A program made the translations under genes and the position numbers. Below the pieces are notes generated by a model. It saw nothing but the letters and a program-made list of their open reading frames with translations. It ran no database searches and was not told the origin of the DNA. Shown in pieces: positions 13,415-64,000 of a stretch of 64,000 nt of DNA (its first letter is position 1; the number at the start of each line of letters is the position of its first letter). Source of the DNA: a virus; the IMG/VR virus record IMGVR_UViG_3300042292_000345, positions 13,326 through 77,325 of that record. The stretch is one strand, 5' to 3'.

Positions 13415-14086
13415 ATGAAATTCGGTATCTGTGATGACAATTGGAATGTACTTGCTAGATTTGCTGTGCCTATGACAGTGAATAGCAACCAACCAGTATT
13501 CTCTACAGATACCCTTTCACTACATAGAAGAACTACAGTAAGAGGTGCTCAACGTTGGGAGATCAGTTCCAACGTTGAAATCTTAAGAGAAACTGCTGCA
13601 GGACTCTTCGCTCATTTAGTAGAGAAAGGGCATCATACACCTATAAATGTATTAATACCACAAAATATAGGTGTTATAGAGAATATGAGAGAAGCCTATG
13701 AGGATCCAATTCCAAGATATATTGGTATCTCTCAAAGACAAAATTCAGCTGATGGCAAAGCTACTATATCTTTACAGAACCATACTGTAGCATTACTTGC
13801 AGGTACTTTTGTACAATTCATAACTTACAACGCAAACGGTGTAATAGATCCTGTACAAGATACTAAAGTATATATGCTAACCAGACCAGTAACAGCAAAT
13901 AATAATATTGCATATGTATATCCTCAGCTTAGAAAAACAGGCACGGTTGGTAGCCAGTCTAAGATGTATTATACAGGCGTTAAAATGCCTTGCTATTATG
14001 ATATGGACACTATTCAGGGAATGGTATATCAAGATGGTCTATTAATGGATATGGGGACTGTGAAACTAGTAGAGGCTTTAGCATGA
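13415..14086 (+). CDS. Distal/minor tail protein
   Basis: Immediately after TMP; GAQRWEI motif and YPQLR near the C-terminus as in sipho minor tail proteins. Confidence 0.6.
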   Translation: MKFGICDDNWNVLARFAVPMTVNSNQPVFSTDTLSLHRRTTVRGAQRWEISSNVEILRETAAGLFAHLVEKGHHTPINVLIPQNIGVIENMREAYEDPIPRYIGISQRQNSADGKATISLQNHTVALLAGTFVQFITYNANGVIDPVQDTKVYMLTRPVTANNNIAYVYPQLRKTGTVGSQSKMYYTGVKMPCYYDMDTIQGMVYQDGLLMDMGTVKLVEALA

Positions 14087-30482: not shown

Positions 30483-30983
30483 ATGATTATAAGAAAGCCT
30501 AAAGTAAATGAAATTCATATGTATTATGAAATAGCCTTGCAGTGTTCATTAGAGAGCCGTATAAAAGAATTTGATATTAATAAGGACTACGTAATGAATA
30601 ATATTAATGCAATGATGAGAGGAGAATATTTTTATGTAGTAGAAAATGAAGGAGTACCAGTAGGGTGGATGGCAGCATCTAAAAGAAGTGCTTCACTTTA
30701 TTGTGATAGATTAGTACTAGCAGTAGATAGTTATCAATGTAATTTAAAAGGTAGAAAAGCTGTTACAGCTATGCTAGATATTCATGAGCACTTATATGAT
30801 TATGCAAATACTATCAATGTAGAAATGGTTCTGACAGGTTCTGTTCTGAATTCAAAAAAGACTTATAATAAAATATTAAAGCACGAGGGCTGGGCTGATT
30901 ATGAATTTATGTTATTGAAAATGACAGATAAATATCAAAATAATAAAATACGTAGAAGGGTTCTGACTATAGCCGAAAAATAA
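30483..30983 (+). CDS. GNAT-fold (acetyltransferase-like) protein
   Basis: MIIRK start, YFYVVENEGVPVGWMAA beta strands, C-terminal YNKILKHEGW. Confidence 0.5.
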   Translation: MIIRKPKVNEIHMYYEIALQCSLESRIKEFDINKDYVMNNINAMMRGEYFYVVENEGVPVGWMAASKRSASLYCDRLVLAVDSYQCNLKGRKAVTAMLDIHEHLYDYANTINVEMVLTGSVLNSKKTYNKILKHEGWADYEFMLLKMTDKYQNNKIRRRVLTIAEK

Positions 30984-30990
30984 AGAAAGC

Positions 30991-31152
30991 GAGGTCAATG
31001 CAAAAACGTCGCCTGTGGCACGCGAGTTCGGGGCATGGCAACCGTATCGCCCGCGAAAATTCGGGGAGCGTACCCCCGCTAGCCGTCGCAGAAACGGGTG
31101 GCGTGTGGCAACTACTGCAAAACCGCAGGAAGGTTAACCCGTCAGGTCTCCC
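30991..31152 (+). repeat. GC-rich element A (1 of 3 related copies)
   Basis: Starts GAGGTCAATGCAAAAACGTCGCCTGTGGCACG, matching 49809 and 54840. Confidence 0.65.
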
Positions 31153-31167
31153 AGTATAAGGAAAATT

Positions 31168-31425
31168 ATGTTAATCAATGAATTAAAACTAGCTAATAAA
31201 TCTGAAAGATGTTCTTTAGTAATATCTTTATTAGATAAGAACAATACCCCTTGGAGATCCTCTAACAGAGGAATCCATATCACAGTAGAACGTGAACATT
31301 ATAAATTAGATATATGGCCTACTACTCTCAAATTTAGGATAACAGAATATCCGTTAGGTGAAGGAAATACTTTCAGTGGTGCTGAAGAATTCTTAGAAAA
31401 TCTGGAAAAGTATTTGCGCAAATAA
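31168..31425 (+). CDS. Hypothetical protein
   Basis: 85-aa ORF, AAGGA RBS, DIWPTT.KF motif. Confidence 0.65.
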   Translation: MLINELKLANKSERCSLVISLLDKNNTPWRSSNRGIHITVEREHYKLDIWPTTLKFRITEYPLGEGNTFSGAEEFLENLEKYLRK

Positions 31426-31454
31426 TGGTATCTTATATGAATACCATAAGGTAT
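31416..31454 (+). promoter_or_regulatory. Candidate phage RNAP promoter, copy 1
   Basis: GCGCAAATAATGGTATCTTATATGAA-TACCATAAGGTAT; conserved at 32552 and 46386; each copy lies just upstream of an RBS. Confidence 0.65.
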
Positions 31455-34322: not shown

Positions 34323-36389
34323 ATGGAAGTAGCAACGATAGAAACGCTGTATCTGTATACAAGACCAAAAAGAAGCGGTGATCCAATTCTATTTGCAGAG
34401 CTTATTACAGCTATGGGTAGGGCACTTTCAGATTCTAGATGTTCGACTGAAAGAGCCAGAATTGGTGCTAACTTTATTTACAATCTAGAAGAGCAGTGTA
34501 TTCTAGAACTTCAACTGAATCAAGATAATCAATATATAATTAAGATTATCAATGATGCATGGATCTTAGATATAATGAGGAAGTGTGTAAAGATCCATCA
34601 CAGTACTTTTCCTTCTCTACTACCATATGATGACTGGGATAAATTTTATCATAGTACAGGTGCTAAACTAATAAAAAGTAAAGCACCAGAATTGAAAAAG
34701 ATAAGCCCTAATACTCATCCTATTGTATTTGATAGTATTAACAGGTCTCAAAGTGTTGGTTGGAATATCAATAAAAGAATTCTACCAATAGCTGAGTGGT
34801 GTCTGAAAAGACAAGAAGCGGCTTTTAGTGATATCTGGAATCAAGTAAAGAAAGAAGCTAAAGCAACAAAGTCTAGAGAGTCTAAGACAATCATTCAGAT
34901 TGCTAAAGAGTTTATTAATTCAACTTTTTATCATCTGTATTATCTTGACTTCCGTGGCAGGTGTTATCCAACTACTGCATACCTTCACGAGCAAGGTTCA
35001 GATCTAGCAAAGGGTTTATTACTCAGAGCTGATAAGAAAAGAATCGGTGAAGGTGGTTATAGATGGTTATGTATCAGTATAGCATCTAACTGGGCAGGTG
35101 CAAGTGGTCGTCCAGATGGTGCAAAGACTGATAAGATTCCTATGTTAGAAAGGTATCAATGGACTCAAGCAAATCTAGATGTGTTGCTTAGCTATGCCAG
35201 AGATCCTCAGAAGAACAAAGGATGGATGGATGCTGATAAGTGTTGGCAGTTTCTAGCAGCTTGTATAGAGCTAAAGAAAATACATGATACTGTATTATAT
35301 CATGGAGCAAATATTTATGATTATGAAAGTCATCTAGAATGTTTTATAGATGGCTCAACTAATGGCTCACAGCATCTGGCAGCACTTACTAGAGATGAAG
35401 TAACAGCACCATATGTTAACTTAGTACCTAGTAGACTGCCTGGTGATTTATATACGTATGTTGCAAACTCTATATGGAAATTTGTCAGTGTTACGTTAGC
35501 TGATCTAGATCCCAATCTAGTAGCTGCAGCAGAAGTATTTGTAGATACTATAATTGAAATGAAAGCACAAGTTAGAAACACTGAACCTAGAAGTGAACTA
35601 AGAAAAGCGCATTCAGAGAAATTACAGTATTATAGGAATCAATATCACTATCTAGAAGAGACAGCAGCTTTTGTCTTCTGGAATAGAGTTAAAGATTTAA
35701 AAGAACGAAGAAAGATCGTTAAACGTGGTGTAATGACTTTACCATATGGCGGGACTTCTTACGGTCTTGGAGAGCAGGTTCTAGAAGACTCTAAAAAGCA
35801 TGGAATAGATCTCTTAAAAGATCTTGATATGAAATGGGGCACTTTCATGGGTAGACTTATCTTTATGAACTGTAAAGATTCATTAAAGAATCCTATGAAA
35901 CTTCTAGATATATTTAGTAAAGCAGGAGTGAAGGCTGAAAAAAGAGATGAGTATCTTTCTTGGACAGTACCTGTAACTAAGTTTCCTGTAATCCAGCATT
36001 ACGATGAAGGTACAATAAAGAAAGTGTTAATTATGTATGGGGGTAGAGAATTAAAGATATCTATCTATCACTCTGAGTTTCCTACTAAAGCTAAAAGGAA
36101 GCAAGGGCAAGGAGCAGCACCTAATATTGTTCATTCACTTGATGCAGCACATCTAATGCTTACTAAAGTAACTTGTCCATTTACAGTAACAACTATTCAC
36201 GATTCTTATGGATGTTTGTTAGCTGATATGGATGATTTATTTAGAATAGTTAGAGAGACATTTGTAGATCTTTATAGAGTAAATCCATTAGATTATTTGA
36301 TGGAAGAAATTCAAGGAGATATGAGTGGTTTAGAAATCGGTGCGCTAGATATCAATAGTGTACTAAAATCAGAATATTGCTTTAGTTAA
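34323..36389 (+). CDS. Single-subunit (T7-family) DNA-directed RNA polymerase, 688 aa
   Basis: DFRGRCYP, motif A DGSTNGSQH, motif B RKIVKRGVMTLPYG, PNIVHSLDAAH, motif C IHDSY, C-terminal SEYCFS. Confidence 0.96.
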   Translation: MEVATIETLYLYTRPKRSGDPILFAELITAMGRALSDSRCSTERARIGANFIYNLEEQCILELQLNQDNQYIIKIINDAWILDIMRKCVKIHHSTFPSLLPYDDWDKFYHSTGAKLIKSKAPELKKISPNTHPIVFDSINRSQSVGWNINKRILPIAEWCLKRQEAAFSDIWNQVKKEAKATKSRESKTIIQIAKEFINSTFYHLYYLDFRGRCYPTTAYLHEQGSDLAKGLLLRADKKRIGEGGYRWLCISIASNWAGASGRPDGAKTDKIPMLERYQWTQANLDVLLSYARDPQKNKGWMDADKCWQFLAACIELKKIHDTVLYHGANIYDYESHLECFIDGSTNGSQHLAALTRDEVTAPYVNLVPSRLPGDLYTYVANSIWKFVSVTLADLDPNLVAAAEVFVDTIIEMKAQVRNTEPRSELRKAHSEKLQYYRNQYHYLEETAAFVFWNRVKDLKERRKIVKRGVMTLPYGGTSYGLGEQVLEDSKKHGIDLLKDLDMKWGTFMGRLIFMNCKDSLKNPMKLLDIFSKAGVKAEKRDEYLSWTVPVTKFPVIQHYDEGTIKKVLIMYGGRELKISIYHSEFPTKAKRKQGQGAAPNIVHSLDAAHLMLTKVTCPFTVTTIHDSYGCLLADMDDLFRIVRETFVDLYRVNPLDYLMEEIQGDMSGLEIGALDINSVLKSEYCFS

Positions 36390-49134: not shown

Positions 49135-49541
49135 AAATAGAATCAGGCAAAAGCTACCGCACACGTAATGGTAGCATGAACGTTGAAGTAACAGAGAATA
49201 GCAAAGAATCGTATTTCAGGTTTTCTGTAGCTAATGTACGTTCAGCAAATCATGTTAATCTTTATTGGGAAGAAAATGGTAGAATAAGTTCTAGTGCAGA
49301 ATCTGATCTTGATTTAGTAGAAGAAGTTGAACCACTCAGAAAGCTTCAGGTTGGTAGTAGCTACTTCACTAGAGAAAGAATTATTGTAACAATTATGGAA
49401 GTTAACCTTCTTAATACTAGATATAAAGGTAGGTATTTCTGTCCTCTGTATAAACAATTCTTTGAGGCTTGGTGGTATGCTAACGGCATGATAGAAACTA
49501 GAGTAACTGATGATTTTGATCTAATAGAGGAAATTCAATGA
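49131..49541 (+). CDS. Paralog-family protein, two tandem domains
   Basis: GKSYRTRNG..WEENG..DLDLVEEV followed by GSSYFTRE..WYANG..DFDLIEEI. Confidence 0.75.
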   Translation: MKIESGKSYRTRNGSMNVEVTENSKESYFRFSVANVRSANHVNLYWEENGRISSSAESDLDLVEEVEPLRKLQVGSSYFTRERIIVTIMEVNLLNTRYKGRYFCPLYKQFFEAWWYANGMIETRVTDDFDLIEEIQ

Positions 49542-49846
49542 GACTAGAAAATGGAAAATATTATATCACGCGAGATAAATCTACAATCTTTCAAGTCACA
49601 GCTATTAGCTCTGATTCGTATGACTTTGCCAGTACTATAGGGTATGATGGAGTTCCTTTGCTGCTATTTAGATCAACTGGCAGGATCTCTCAGTGGGAGG
49701 AAGATGCACTGGACTTAGTAGCTGAAGTAAGCTTTGTTGAACTGCCAGATACACCAACACCTTTGTTTAATATTGATAGCGAACAGTTTGATCTTTTTAC
49801 TTACGATTGGGATCAATACAAAAACGCGCCCTCTGCAACGCAATAA
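49538..49846 (+). CDS. Paralog-family protein
   Basis: LENGKYYITRD..LDLVAEV; 3' end runs into element B. Confidence 0.7.
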   Translation: MRLENGKYYITRDKSTIFQVTAISSDSYDFASTIGYDGVPLLLFRSTGRISQWEEDALDLVAEVSFVELPDTPTPLFNIDSEQFDLFTYDWDQYKNAPSATQ

Positions 49847-49945
49847 TTTCGGGCAGATTTCGGAGGGCAGGCACACGGACGTGCCACAGCGCGTGAATGC
49901 GTCTAAAAATTCTGCAGGGCAATTGCATGTCGCATGTCACCCCAA
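49809..49945 (+). repeat. GC-rich element B
   Basis: Starts GGGATCAATACAAAAACGCGCCCTCTGCAACGC; also carries CGTGCCACAG, the reverse complement of CTGTGGCACG in element A. Confidence 0.55.
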
Positions 49946-50004
49946 GTTTGTAAAAGAACATCTTACTTATTATTTACTTTTATTTATTTTATTGGAGAAT
50001 TACA

Positions 50005-51515: not shown

Positions 51516-51716
51516 ATGACAACTAAAGTATTACATGTAGGTAGAGATAATACATGGCAAGTTAATTCAGAACTTGAAAATGGCTGGGTGATTATCGATA
51601 TGGCAGCTACAAATGATTTTGTAGCTTATGTGCTAAAGAAGGTAGATGTTAAAGCACCTGCGCATATTGATGTAATGTCTGCAATGACTGAAAGAAGAAT
51701 TAGAGGTACAGACTGA
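51516..51716 (+). CDS. Hypothetical protein
   Basis: VNSELENGWVII...YVL motif. Confidence 0.65.
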   Translation: MTTKVLHVGRDNTWQVNSELENGWVIIDMAATNDFVAYVLKKVDVKAPAHIDVMSAMTERRIRGTD

Positions 51717-52255
51717 TGACTAGACACATACACGCAGATTTAATGGCAGAATATGCCAAAGATGCCCAGATCTCAAACACTCCTTGGGAATATTGGGAAA
51801 ATATGAGATCAATTGATAAGGATTGGGTTAGTCTGGCAGATCATCCTTATTGGGATGAGGCGACTAAATACAGAAAAAAGCCAGTACAATGGAGCCCTCC
51901 AGAGGGTTCATTTTATATCAGAACTGATTATAATGGTATATTTTCTGAGAATACTAAAAAGACTCGTCGTAATTTCGGATTGGAACGAAATGACAGAACT
52001 ACAGCACTTAAAGCACTTGCAGAAATTAGAACATTCTGTAGACTGCTAGCGCTAAGAGATGAGTTATGCCCTAACTTTACACCTAGATGGGGTGATGATG
52101 AAAGTAATAATTATGTAATATACTATGATACGCAGCTGACTGAATTTACATATGTCTGTTATACTGTCTATAAAGGCTATTCACCTTACTTTGATGAAGA
52201 AGGTGCTATAAAAGCCTGTGAGTTATTAAATTCAATGCAAGTAGTTTTATATTAA
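51716..52255 (+). CDS. Two-domain hypothetical protein, paralog 1 of triplet
   Basis: HIHADLMAEYAKDAQ..PWEYWE..YRKKP plus RLLALRDELCP..PYF..ACELLNS. Confidence 0.8.
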   Translation: MTRHIHADLMAEYAKDAQISNTPWEYWENMRSIDKDWVSLADHPYWDEATKYRKKPVQWSPPEGSFYIRTDYNGIFSENTKKTRRNFGLERNDRTTALKALAEIRTFCRLLALRDELCPNFTPRWGDDESNNYVIYYDTQLTEFTYVCYTVYKGYSPYFDEEGAIKACELLNSMQVVLY

Positions 52256-52277: not shown

Positions 52278-52763
52278 ATGGCAGCACACATACATGCAGA
52301 ATTAATGCTACAATATGCAAAAGATGCTCAGCTCACAAATGAACCTTGGACTCTCTGGGAGTATAGATTAGCTAAACATGATTTTACTGATGCAATAACC
52401 AGTGAGTGGATGAGCTTGCAAGACAGCCCTACTTGGCGAATTGAAATGGAATACCGCCATAAGCCTAAATGGGAACCGAAAGAAGGTAATTGGAGGAATT
52501 TCTTTAATATTTCTAGAGATAGCGAAGAAGAGGTTAAGATCGCTATAAGAGAAATAAATCGTTTCACTCGTCTTCTAGCACTGGCGCATGAGCTAAATAA
52601 TGATAATAATTGTCCTAATTATTTCTTACATTATGACTGCTATGATGATAAATGGGAGCCACATATGATTGTAAATAAACAGTATATTGTAACTCCTTTA
52701 TTTACTAGAGATGCTGCTTTTACAGCATGTAAGATGTTAAATTCTAATGAGGCAAAACTATGA
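52278..52763 (+). CDS. Two-domain hypothetical protein, paralog 2
   Basis: HIHAELMLQYAKDAQ..YRHKP plus RFTRLLALAHEL..ACKMLNS. Confidence 0.8.
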   Translation: MAAHIHAELMLQYAKDAQLTNEPWTLWEYRLAKHDFTDAITSEWMSLQDSPTWRIEMEYRHKPKWEPKEGNWRNFFNISRDSEEEVKIAIREINRFTRLLALAHELNNDNNCPNYFLHYDCYDDKWEPHMIVNKQYIVTPLFTRDAAFTACKMLNSNEAKL

Positions 52764-53768: not shown

Positions 53769-54662
53769 ATGTATTTCTTAAATATACCTGATAAAGGCAT
53801 CATAGATGCTAGATTTACTAACAAGACAGAAGTAATTAACATTGCAAGATCACTGAAAGGTACTGTAACAAATGCTAAAGGAGAGATAGTATATCCTTTC
53901 AGTATACCTGAATGTAAAACTCCTAGATGGGTAATCAATCCTAGAATTAAGAGAGAACCTACAACAATCATATCTACTATAAGAGGTATGAATGAACCTG
54001 CCAATTATAAACAATCTCCTAGAGCACAGGTAATCTATGAAGATGGTACTAAACAAGATCTTGCATCACAGATATGGAATATGGAAGTAGGCAATATCCC
54101 ATTGTCCTATTATGTAAGACACAAGAACTATGATGTTAATGATAATAGACTTAGTAATCTAGAATTAGCAATGGTAGGTTGTGTGTATCCAATAGAGACT
54201 ATCAATGAGTTTAGACCTATGAGGCTTATGAGACTCAAGAAGTTTAATGAAGTATGTGTATATCATCATTCAGGTATTGTACACGTTATTAAAGGTAATA
54301 TAGATCTTAGAGGCTCTAATGATCCTTTCTATCCTAGACCAGTAATTAAAGAACGTGAGAAGTTAAACGTGTTCTATGATCTAGCCTCTATGTGTTGGAT
54401 GCAAGCATTTGAGAGAGATGTACCTTCCTTCTTCTTTATAGGATTCAGGGATCTTAATCCAAATAATCTTTCATTAGATAACTTGGAGTTAACTCCCAGA
54501 CCTTATTCAGAAGAGCAGTTTAGAGAAGAATACACTATCCATGAAGGTCATGTAGTATTTAAGAAATGGATGAATAAAGTAACATTCCCATTAAAGCTAC
54601 CATCATGTATTTCACTTAATAAAACAAAAGCTATCAGTATCTTGGAGAATAGTAATGACTAG
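53769..54662 (+). CDS. HNH endonuclease-like protein with two HNH-type repeats
   Basis: VRHKNYDVNDNRLSNLEL and IGFRDLNPNNLSLDNLEL. Confidence 0.6.
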   Translation: MYFLNIPDKGIIDARFTNKTEVINIARSLKGTVTNAKGEIVYPFSIPECKTPRWVINPRIKREPTTIISTIRGMNEPANYKQSPRAQVIYEDGTKQDLASQIWNMEVGNIPLSYYVRHKNYDVNDNRLSNLELAMVGCVYPIETINEFRPMRLMRLKKFNEVCVYHHSGIVHVIKGNIDLRGSNDPFYPRPVIKEREKLNVFYDLASMCWMQAFERDVPSFFFIGFRDLNPNNLSLDNLELTPRPYSEEQFREEYTIHEGHVVFKKWMNKVTFPLKLPSCISLNKTKAISILENSND

Positions 54663-54924
54663 AGAAACATTTGTATTTAATGCCTTACAAGCCTTCCTTA
54701 TTAGTCATGAAGATGACAAAGAACTTAGTGAAGAGCTAACAAACATCTTAGAGAATATAGACATTGCTATAACAGTATCTGAAGAGCAGTGTTTAATAAG
54801 TGCTGTAAGCTACGGTCCTTTATTCGATAGAAAGAGCTTGAGGTCAATCCAAATTCGTCGCCTGCGACACGACTCCCCAAAACCCTCACTGGAGGCTCCC
54901 CTCCCCCGCGAACGCCCGCTGTAG
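54655..54924 (+). CDS. Hypothetical protein (C-terminus encoded by element C)
   Basis: GGAG RBS; last ~27 codons lie in the GC-rich element. Confidence 0.5.
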   Translation: MTRETFVFNALQAFLISHEDDKELSEELTNILENIDIAITVSEEQCLISAVSYGPLFDRKSLRSIQIRRLRHDSPKPSLEAPLPRERPL

Positions 54925-54985
54925 CCCTGCTAGCGTCTTCAGAACTGGCACACTCGCAGTCACTTTCCGCTAACTGCAAGTACGT
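54840..54985 (+). repeat. GC-rich element C
   Basis: Starts GAGGTCAATCCAAATTCGTCGCCTGCGACACG, 27/32 identical to element A. Confidence 0.65.
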
Positions 54986-55129
54986 TAAGGATTTGAATGC
55001 GATACGATGAAAGTTGTATTTGCTTTTTGTCATATATCCTCAAAATATTGCCCTTTAGTTATGCTGAAGGGTGATCTTTTCCTTAGTGACGATTAAGGAA
55101 AATGGGATTTTATGATCTGAGGACGCTTC

Positions 55130-55510
55130 GCAAATCTCTCTTAAAGTTTTCTTATAGAATTCTATTAATATCTTTTAGGTTATTATAGGTTCTTTAAGAT
55201 TTCTTTAAGGTCTATTAGATCTTTTAGATATAAATTATTTAAATTCTTAATATTAACTTATTAATTATTTATTTAATTTATATCTAAAAGGTCTAATATT
55301 TTTTATTTTTTTTTTTCTTAATTATTAAATAATATTACTTATTGTATTAATTTAGTACTATAAGTACTATTATTTTGCGTGTGTGTGGATAATGGTGTGT
55401 CGATAAATTTTTTCATATCTTCTCCTTAAAGATTTAAAATAACTTACTCCAAAAAGTTGTTTATGCCTTAAAGATCTCTTTTTAGACTTCTTTAAGGCCT
55501 TTTTTCGTAA
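55130..55510. other. AT-rich non-coding region with 25-bp inverted repeat and CTTAAAG heptamers (candidate origin or genome-end/packaging region)
   Basis: Arms 55213-55237 and 55274-55298 (24/25); six CTTAAAG/CTTTAAG copies; lies upstream of terminase. Confidence 0.5.
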
Positions 55511-55529
55511 CTAAAATAAAGGATTTAAA

Positions 55530-55715
55530 ATGAGTATTTTTGATGATATTGGTCATGCAATAAAACATACTACTGATAGTATTGTTGATACCGCTGAAGG
55601 TGTTGTATCAGGTGATACTGATGCAATTAAAGATGTAGCCCATATTGTAGTACCTGAAATTCCAGCTGTTATTACTGATGGTGTTATAGATGCTATCGCA
55701 GATGCTGTCAAGTGA
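55530..55715 (+). CDS. Small acidic amphipathic protein (61 aa)
   Basis: AAGGA RBS; MSIFDDIGHAIKH.. Confidence 0.65.
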   Translation: MSIFDDIGHAIKHTTDSIVDTAEGVVSGDTDAIKDVAHIVVPEIPAVITDGVIDAIADAVK

Positions 55716-63440: not shown

Positions 63441-64000
63441 CAGTCGCATCAGATTATACTAGTGTAACTATTGGAACTTATACAGGGCTGACTAGCATTT
63501 CACAAATTGGTCAAGCAACTTCAATAGATGTCCCTATTATTGCTATCCCTGCAAGTATACCTAGCCTATCTATTAGTAGACCTGCATATACTGATATTGC
63601 AACTACTTATGTAGGTATAAATAAAGTCAATACTTATATGGGTACTTTCAGCACAGTGGATAGCCCAGTTGTAAGTATTCCTGCTAGTATCCCTAGCCTA
63701 TCTATTAGTAGACCTATTTATACTAATATAACAGATACTTATGTAGGTATAAATAGAATTAATACTTATGCAGGTACTTTCGGCACAGTGGATAGTCCAG
63801 CTATAAGTATCCCTGCAAGTATACCTAGTCTATCTATTAGTAGACCTATTTATACTACTATAACAGATACTTATGTAGGTATAAATAGAATTAATACTTA
63901 TGCAGGTACTTTCGGCACAGTGGATAGTCCAGCTATAAGTATCCCTGCAAGTATACCTAGTCTATCTATTAGTAGACCTATTTATACTACTATAACAGAT
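63437..64000 (+). CDS. Putative virion protein with 44-aa tandem repeats (3'-truncated, not in ORF track)
   Basis: ATG overlaps previous stop; frame open to window end. Confidence 0.75.
   Translation, partial: MTVASDYTSVTIGTYTGLTSISQIGQATSIDVPIIAIPASIPSLSISRPAYTDIATTYVGINKVNTYMGTFSTVDSPVVSIPASIPSLSISRPIYTNITDTYVGINRINTYAGTFGTVDSPAISIPASIPSLSISRPIYTTITDTYVGINRINTYAGTFGTVDSPAISIPASIPSLSISRPIYTTITD
63545..64000 (+). repeat. 132-bp in-frame tandem repeat, at least 3.4 copies
   Basis: Units start at 63545, 63677, 63809, 63941; unit IPASIPSLSISRPIYTxITDTYVGINRINTYAGTFGTVDSPAIS. Confidence 0.92.

Follow-up and report, generated by a model that had tools for sequence, protein, structure and literature searches.

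Why should an AT-rich phage genome carry, at a few places outside its long genes, short stretches of markedly GC-rich DNA, and what might such stretches do? The question is raised by a phage from lake water (G000), represented by an IMG/VR record of 77,325 bp. Bases 13326–77325 of this record form the window (the whole stretch of DNA that was analysed, 64,000 nucleotides), which has a GC content of 35.9%. A preliminary description had singled out three GC-rich elements, here called A, B and C, and had proposed that they form a system of cis-acting DNA elements, with strong DNA-gyrase sites as the best guess and structured RNAs or replication and packaging signals as alternatives.

Three GC-rich elements and their genomic setting

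All ORFs of more than 200 aa in the window lie on the + strand without exception. The elements and the gene modules around them are listed here in window coordinates.

1529–30266: giant virion proteins and tail fibre
30483–30983, + strand: last late gene, acetyltransferase-like (phrog_1249), which ends 8 nt before element A
30991–31152, + strand: element A, a GC-rich module (61% GC) at the late/early gene junction
30991–31022, + strand: 5′ box of A, GAGGTCAATGCAAAAACG + GTCGCCTGTGGCACG, identical to C at 27 of 32 positions
31013–31109, + strand: STGTGGC pair inside A (31013–31019 and 31103–31109), 90 bp apart
31125–31152, + strand: 3′ box of A, GGTTAACCC-GTCAGGTCTCCC, by alignment a decayed homologue of the promoter motif described below, with a C-rich follower
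31168–31425, + strand: first gene after A, upstream of early promoter P1
Between A and the RNA polymerase gene: small early genes
34323–36389, + strand: free T7-type RNA polymerase (phrog_414)
Up to 48910: DNA polymerase, primase-helicase, ribonucleotide reductase and ligase
49809–49954, + strand: element B, after the replication module (5′ box 49809–49840, 3′ box 49942–49954)
Downstream of B and before the HNH endonuclease: small genes without assigned function
53769–54662: HNH endonuclease gene, upstream of C
54840–54988, + strand: element C, between the HNH gene and an AT-rich region (5′ box 54840–54871, 3′ box 54976–54988)
55000–55530: AT-rich non-coding region adjoining C, ~500 bp
From 56265: large terminase subunit, beyond the AT-rich region that follows C

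The early promoter of G000 is present in three copies, at ~31417, 32555 and 46385. Since the gene at 31168–31425 lies upstream of the first of these (P1, ~31417–31445), it depends either on a start signal within A or on read-through. The replication genes form a T7-like module, with a Pol I-type DNA polymerase and a primase-helicase. Reading frames run into two of the elements: the final 12 codons and the stop of the ORF at 49538–49846 overlap B, and the ORF at 54655–54924 extends 85 nt into C. The AT-rich region next to C contains a palindrome with 40-nt arms (55213–55252 and 55259–55298), followed by a T run, as well as approximately seven CTTTAAG/CTTAAAG repeats. The succession of HNH gene, AT-rich region, small ORF and large terminase resembles the HNH-cos-terminase layout of HK97-like phages, which makes the region 55000–55530 a candidate packaging site or origin. 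Between B and the HNH gene, the ORFs at 51716–52255 and 52278–52763 share an N-terminal domain (phrog_18768) and are suspected to be a tandem pair of paralogues. Both ends of the record (window positions 63544–64000 and record bases 1–260) fall in a tandem repeat of 132 bp that belongs to an ORF. Among the records, 'direct terminal repeats' measure 127 bp in two genomes (G000 and G002) and 58 bp in one, and those of 127 bp look like assembler overlap.

The three copies lie where the preliminary description had placed them, all on the + strand. The start that they were said to share is real, as the degenerate 18-mer GRGRTCAATNCAAAWWCG, which was derived from A, B and C themselves, occurs exactly three times in the 77,325-bp record and always on the + strand. 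The count of identical positions between A and C over their first 32 nt was reproduced, and so was the word CCC.GCTAGC, which both elements carry ~83–85 bp further on and which is followed by CAGAA. Across A, B and C, 24 of the ~36 positions of the 5′ box are invariant. A second shared box, SCARGNNNGTWAA, is found 133–136 bp downstream of the 5′ box in every element and occurs on the + strand of the genome only three times, at A, B and C. The whole elements are 146–162 bp long, with a core of ~135–160 bp. They represent the sole GC peaks of at least 0.52 outside long ORFs, reaching 0.68 (A), 0.66 (C) and 0.56 (B) per 100 bp against a genome value of 0.359, in agreement with their portrayal as GC-rich elements in an AT-rich genome. 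The remaining peaks of at least 0.52 per 100 bp fall within long ORFs, for example those of a 3960-aa protein and of the tail fibre.

That the three copies form one family could be upheld, although not by BLAST alone, which found a weak similarity between A and C (E 0.17, within the G000 genome) and detected none between A and B. As a consequence, the case for one family rests on the SCARGNNNGTWAA box, on the homology of A to sequences in related phages and on the synteny of all three copies. The pattern of the 5′ box has no match in IMG/VR and a single chance match, in an unrelated coding region, in JGI metagenome contigs. A looser 17-mer produced 99 chance matches in IMG/VR, in unrelated and mostly GC-rich phages, none of which has an element. 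The islands had no blastn match in 50,697 records of cultured phages, the whole 3-kb region has no near match among cultured phages, and no description of such modules was found in the papers searched. Contigs from four lake metagenomes span B and C and include strain variants; no form without B or C was seen among them. A search of sequencing runs listed no RNA run that contains the phage. In lake-metagenome contigs of other strains, unrelated DNA replaces the sequence upstream of 49975, 50023 and 49712, and these loose ends point to mosaic breakpoints at the downstream edge of B.

Homologous islands and a conserved promoter-like motif in related phages

We gathered 80 related IMG/VR loci (L004–L083) with a polymerase profile, each ~50% identical to the RNA polymerase of G000. 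Many of them have a GC island ~3.5 kb upstream of the polymerase gene, which is the position of A. The alignment of element A with the syntenic islands of L004–L013 covers the entire element and the distal ~190 bp of the islands, and the homology of A to the syntenic island of relatives has a BLAST E value of 6e-5. The stretch of its 5′ box from TGCAAA to GTGGCACGCG is common to L004 and L007. The complete relatives G001–G003 contain a second, paralogous island ~21–22 kb downstream, after the replication genes, at the position of B. Paralogy links these A-like and B-like islands with one another and with A and B, and the two-island layout is also present in three further clades (G007, G008 and G010). 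B is syntenic with and homologous to the B-like island of G001–G003, G007, G008 and G010, which ends in a copy of the promoter motif described below. C is syntenic with the fourth promoter copy of G001 (40461), which has no island. Absence from relatives would have spoken against the original proposal; islands are present there at two fixed positions, and these are module boundaries, as had been noted for A and C.

The motif in question contains the 13-mer GTTAAATTAACCC within ~21 conserved nucleotides, with the extended form rACCCCGTTAAATTAACCCt. It occurs seven times per genome in three of the four complete relatives and three times in the other one; every copy is on the gene strand (+), and all 13 core positions are kept in seven copies. 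The copies of G001 are located at 14046, 21734, 35186, 40461, 40616, 61837 and 61951 (reverse-complemented record). Some copies are followed by ..CCGTCCCCCCT and then by an ATATTAT-like box. Of the 80 loci, 45 contain the 13-mer, among them phages of 62–65% GC. It behaves like a promoter of one of the phage polymerases, and is predicted to be one. In G001–G003, a GC island stands directly in front of two of the seven copies, and each island ends exactly in GTTAAATTAACCC. The modules are homologous between these phages, keep their positions and are linked to the promoter motif.

In distant clades, 50–100 bp of AT-rich DNA lie between island and promoter, and L033, L069 and L077 have an intrinsic terminator at the island end. 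This gap, together with the possible terminator, suggests that the island may belong to the end of the upstream unit and not to the promoter. The junction is without an island in L035 and L076, so that the module is dispensable. The proximal halves of the islands are mosaic and their sequence turns over rapidly. The islands of L004 and L007 are highly identical, but within a mosaic block that extends beyond them; this identity is, thus, no proof of selection on the island alone. In these two loci, the acetyltransferase-like last late gene runs ~130 nt into the GC island (L004 5880–6398, L007 5868–6386); the composition of the island is thereby imposed on coding sequence, and the DNA for the C-terminal tail has copies of the GGGGCA motif discussed below. 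A T7-promoter-like word, TACCTCACTATCA, directly follows the last late gene in L033 (~6310), L035 (~1080) and L076 (~5945), and in L033 it lies in the loop of a long hairpin. Among cultured phages, DSS3_VP1 is the closest by RNA polymerase (35%) and has the same gene order as G000; no comparable island was seen in its 514-bp gap, and its paper is silent on such an element.

No intact copy of GTTAAATTAACCC was found in G000. Each of the three elements has a 3′ box that can be aligned with the motif but is decayed, and these boxes share ~8 fixed positions. The 3′ box of A aligns with CGTTAAATTAACCC-TTCAGACGTCCCCCC of relatives and keeps GGTTAACCC and the C-rich follower. Judged by this alignment, the 3′ boxes are decayed remains of the family promoter motif. 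A, B and C occupy sites where relatives have a promoter of the phage polymerase, a context that was missing from the preliminary description. The free RNA polymerase of G000 has a 13-residue deletion, in which YGPP.G.R..TGYY.NTLQL is reduced to YG-GRELKI (alignment columns 600–700), and its N-terminus is ~35 residues shorter than in 16 of 16 aligned relatives (columns 0–110); the enzyme has 688 aa, against 745 aa in a relative. We take the deleted region to correspond to the specificity loop of T7 RNA polymerase. As GTTAAATTAACCC is absent from the phage with this deletion, loss of the promoter and a change in the part of the polymerase that reads it seem to go together, and the deletion is the probable reason for the missing canonical promoter. 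The GAGGTCAAT part of the 5′ box was not found in relatives; the segment of L004 that is homologous to the 5′ box lacks it. If the three early promoters are set aside, no promoter-like motif was found in several copies in G000 other than the boxes of A, B and C, and a 16-mer scan of the intergenic DNA with the islands masked revealed none further.

The reading that we prefer, tentatively and with somewhat less than even confidence, is that the three elements represent, in G000, a GC-rich boundary module which is conserved in the family, linked to promoters and bent or wrapped by a bound protein. The module would be a non-coding, DNA-level element at the 3′ end of one transcription unit, directly upstream of the phage-polymerase promoter that starts the next. 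We infer that a sequence-specific protein, of phage or host, would bind the boxes at both ends and bend or wrap the phased GC-rich DNA between them. The resulting protein-DNA complex might insulate neighbouring temporal transcription classes, might define the topology around the adjacent promoter and its strength, or might do both. In G000, a part of the specificity loop would be missing from the polymerase and the 3′ boxes would be what remains of the canonical promoter, leaving three modules with a new shared 5′ box as the only conserved signals at the junctions. The occurrence of modules at the same two positions in strongly diverged clades suggests that they are probably central to the insulation or timing of the transcription programme in this family of uncultured lake and marine phages, where they mark the junctions between temporal gene classes.

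Helical periodicity, short motifs and the gyrase reading

The alternation of strong and weak base pairs (S/W) was scanned with normalisation for composition at periods of 10.25–11.25 bp in 130-bp windows, with p values taken against random segments of equal length. The alternation of GC blocks with A/T runs reported for the elements is real, and A has a best S/W period of 10.75 bp. A periodicity of ~10.5 bp, which the preliminary description had put forward as a check, is present in A (p 0.017), whereas C is a marginal case (p 0.057) and B shows none (p 0.49); the periodicity of islands tends to ~10.75–11 bp. The best 130-bp window of A is among the top 0.28% of genome windows, and the A-like island of G002 ranks first of 15,622 windows. 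Islands of relatives gave p values of 0.002, 0.013, 0.035, 0.064 and 0.072, and one was negative (0.23); these values are not independent, since the copies are related to one another. The periodicity is weak outside the clade of G000 and L004–L014. Its phase relative to the promoter clusters only among homologous copies and is, therefore, uninformative. No mirror or dyad symmetry of the S/W pattern was detected beyond that given by chance over 76–279 centres (best r = 0.28–0.41).

The islands also contain repeated short motifs. The A-like island of G002 has an STGTGGC pair 91 bp apart, as A has one 90 bp apart, against a chance expectation of 0.02–0.04 pairs per genome's islands. Each STGTGGC site in A lies beside a copy of TGCAAAAMCG. 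GGGGCA is 46-fold enriched in A-like islands, and six of the 11 genomic copies in G002 fall within its two islands; the elements of G000 are poor in this hexamer, with a single copy, in A, among the three. Distant clades carry the motif in inverted form (TGCCCC), which fits a protein site and not a strand-specific RNA or R-loop signal. The conserved boxes and the repeated short motifs argue for a sequence-specific binder rather than for indirect read-out.

The main rival, possible but in our view unlikely, is the original guess that the phased GC/AT stretch of ~130–160 bp is a strong site that would wrap host gyrase, by analogy with the strong gyrase site (SGS) of phage Mu and the Topo-seq motif. 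Such sites could relieve the positive supercoiling that fast T7-type polymerases build up where their units end, could supply negative supercoiling for hairpin-type early promoters, or could do both. The hairpin-type early promoters of N4 need negative supercoiling. In the E. coli Topo-seq study (PMC6379681), the motif is 130 bp long with a 69% GC consensus and arms with a 10.75-bp GC periodicity, exactly the best period of A. The same study reports gyrase enrichment downstream of transcription units, as well as a mean gyrase PWM score of intergenic DNA in E. coli below the genome mean (PMC6379681). All islands are located at a unit's 3′ end, and most of them have a high rank for periodicity of the 10.75-bp type. 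The 133–136-bp spacing of the boxes is compatible with ~130 bp, but is not specific. The absence of a topoisomerase gene, previously noted for the window, extends to the whole G000 genome, where no gene of the GyrA/ParC or GyrB families was found; a phage without its own type II topoisomerase gene, and with an AT-rich genome that would otherwise be a poor gyrase substrate, would suit a dependence on such sites. The local layout at the Mu SGS (gene end, SGS, terminator and late promoter) is also alike.

However, the S/W pattern lacks significant dyad symmetry, B is not periodic, and the conserved boxes, STGTGGC pairs and GGGGCA clusters would be unexpected from indirect read-out. When the Mu SGS was scored as a control by the same measure, it ranked only 429 of 7318, within the top 6% of Mu windows, so that the periodicity signal is not specific for gyrase. 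The authentic SGS is also AT-rich (44% GC in a genome of 52% GC). If the modules were nevertheless gyrase-loading or architectural sites, they would be a rare phage example of topology control built into promoters.

Remaining readings and known systems

A less probable reading is that the elements are promoters with a GC-rich leader, in which the G000 polymerase would read GRGRTCAATNCAAAWWCG in the 5′ box and transcribe a leader of ~135 nt. It would account for the 5′ box being the best conserved part of the elements, for the lack of other multi-copy promoter-like motifs besides the early promoters, and for the start signal needed by the gene between A and P1. The 5′ box and GTTAAATTAACCC share a GTNAANNNAA frame, and the deletion in the polymerase predicts a changed promoter. 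On the other hand, the promoter of relatives is at the 3′ end of the island and not at the 5′ end, the homologous segment of L004 is without the GAGGTCAAT part, and the A–C similarity is weak by BLAST. A shift of the promoter in three copies would also require the spread of a cassette or gene conversion. T7-type promoters are ~17–23 bp long and near-identical between copies, and they precede genes on the coding strand, a description that applies to the motif of relatives; in G000, by comparison, the 3′ boxes have ~8 fixed positions and the 5′ boxes agree between A and C to the extent given above, in three copies.

More doubtful again is the possibility that the GC-rich modules recruit the polymerase of G000, either with the help of a bound factor or by the DNA shape or supercoiling at the GC/AT junction, in place of a classical 23-bp promoter; the modules might then double as gyrase-loading sites. 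If so, G000 would represent a natural switch of a single-subunit RNA polymerase from sequence read-out to architecture-dependent initiation. Should the modules substitute for lost promoter specificity, they would bear on the dependence of single-subunit polymerases, the mitochondrial ones included, on accessory factors. The GTTAAATTAACCC promoter and its polymerase may serve as an orthogonal expression pair.

We consider it improbable that the elements are transcription-primed or R-loop replication origins, in which a promoter and a G-rich stretch would hold a primer transcript, by analogy with the T7 origin, T4 oriF, ColE1 and the mitochondrial CSBs. The T7-like replication module and the proximity of the islands to phage promoters are consistent with this idea, as are the G runs and positive + strand G skew (+0.18 to +0.31) of the A-like islands of relatives, and C is followed by the AT-rich region with its large palindrome. 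But the island of relatives is upstream of the promoter and not downstream of it, the strand bias is not kept in the elements of G000 (A +0.03, B −0.01, C −0.28), GGGGCA is inverted in other clades, and no iterons of the usual 17–22 bp are present in the elements. An iteron-type origin was rejected separately, as the elements contain only 10–13-nt two-copy repeats and hexamer clusters, and an AT-rich region adjoins C only.

Slightly less credible still is the proposal that the modules are selfish or neutral GC clusters that would spread or persist beside promoters without benefit, as the GC clusters of yeast mitochondria do. Their number differs (two in relatives, three in G000), C occupies a site that has no island in G001, some relatives are without islands, and the rapid turnover and mosaic proximal halves would be in keeping with such elements. 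Against this stand the two positions conserved across clades whose polymerases are each ~50% identical to that of G000, the conserved boxes with their fixed spacing, and the lack of presence/absence variants in the four metagenomes. Neither terminal inverted repeats nor target duplications were found at the elements.

A family of small structured RNAs, or a stabilising 3′ UTR of the upstream unit, is very improbable, even though GC-rich islands in AT-rich genomes are often RNA genes, a few islands end in an intrinsic terminator and A has a high absolute folding energy (−61 kcal/mol): fold z-scores against shuffles for A, B, C and the closest relatives are between −0.9 and +1.0 on both strands, the RNAalifold consensus reaches only −6.6 and −13 kcal/mol with no convincing covariation, searches of the whole window with Rfam (at the gathering threshold) and ARAGORN identified no Rfam family, tRNA or tmRNA, and helical periodicity is a property of duplex DNA. 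The structured-RNA alternative of the preliminary description is, thus, not borne out, and the several short hairpins that it saw in A do exist but are no more than chance provides (z −0.8).

Several simpler candidates were also rejected. A 53-aa ORF in A does not qualify as a small protein gene: its ATG start reads ATA in B and ATC in C and is missing at the corresponding site of L004, the gap lengths separating the copies are not multiples of three, and a stop codon in C interrupts the frame that is open in A. REP/BIME-like palindromes do not fit three copies without inverted repeats in A or C and with a weak 11-nt pair in B. No intrinsic terminator site is present on the + strand inside A, B or C, with weak terminator-like shapes on the minus strand at the 5′ boxes, and scans for sigma-70-type promoters and terminators around the elements found nothing beyond chance inside them. 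The broader claim of a cis-acting DNA element system is, by contrast, supported: the elements look like neither protein nor folded RNA and are conserved in relatives at module boundaries.

Among known systems, the Mu SGS and the Topo-seq motif are broadly comparable to the elements in size (~130–160 bp) and, for A, in a GC/AT alternation near 10.75 bp, and the Mu SGS also lies between the end of a unit and the next promoter in a phage without its own type II topoisomerase. However, the Mu SGS is AT-rich and single-copy, and the elements described here differ from both in having conserved boxes and repeated short motifs, in lacking significant dyad symmetry and in the aperiodic B. REPs are imperfect palindromes of 35–40 bp in hundreds of copies. 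The REP/BIME elements of enterobacteria are likewise extragenic, rich in GC and placed where transcription units end (3′), and the Topo-seq study describes BIMEs as binding gyrase and IHF, with gyrase cleavage sites enriched in BIME-1 (PMC6379681). The phage elements, in contrast, are without significant inverted repeats, are present in two or three copies and are tied to a phage promoter.

The ori/rep sequences and GC clusters of yeast mitochondrial DNA are another case of GC blocks in a very AT-rich genome, and they, too, adjoin promoters that a T7-type RNA polymerase uses. In yeast ori/rep, the promoter is upstream of the GC clusters and its transcript primes replication, whereas the promoter is downstream of the island in the phage relatives. 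Compared to the promoters of the T7 group, the island is not itself a promoter, two of seven copies have an island, and G000 is without the canonical motif. The relatives nevertheless resemble this group in their strictly conserved motif of ~21 nt, with seven copies all on the coding strand, and AATTAACCCT, a part of this motif, is probably equal to the upstream half of the T3 promoter. The left end of T7, where phiOL is preceded by short repeats, may offer a further likeness, in that one copy of the motif is located upstream of the early promoters, after a repeat-rich non-coding stretch.
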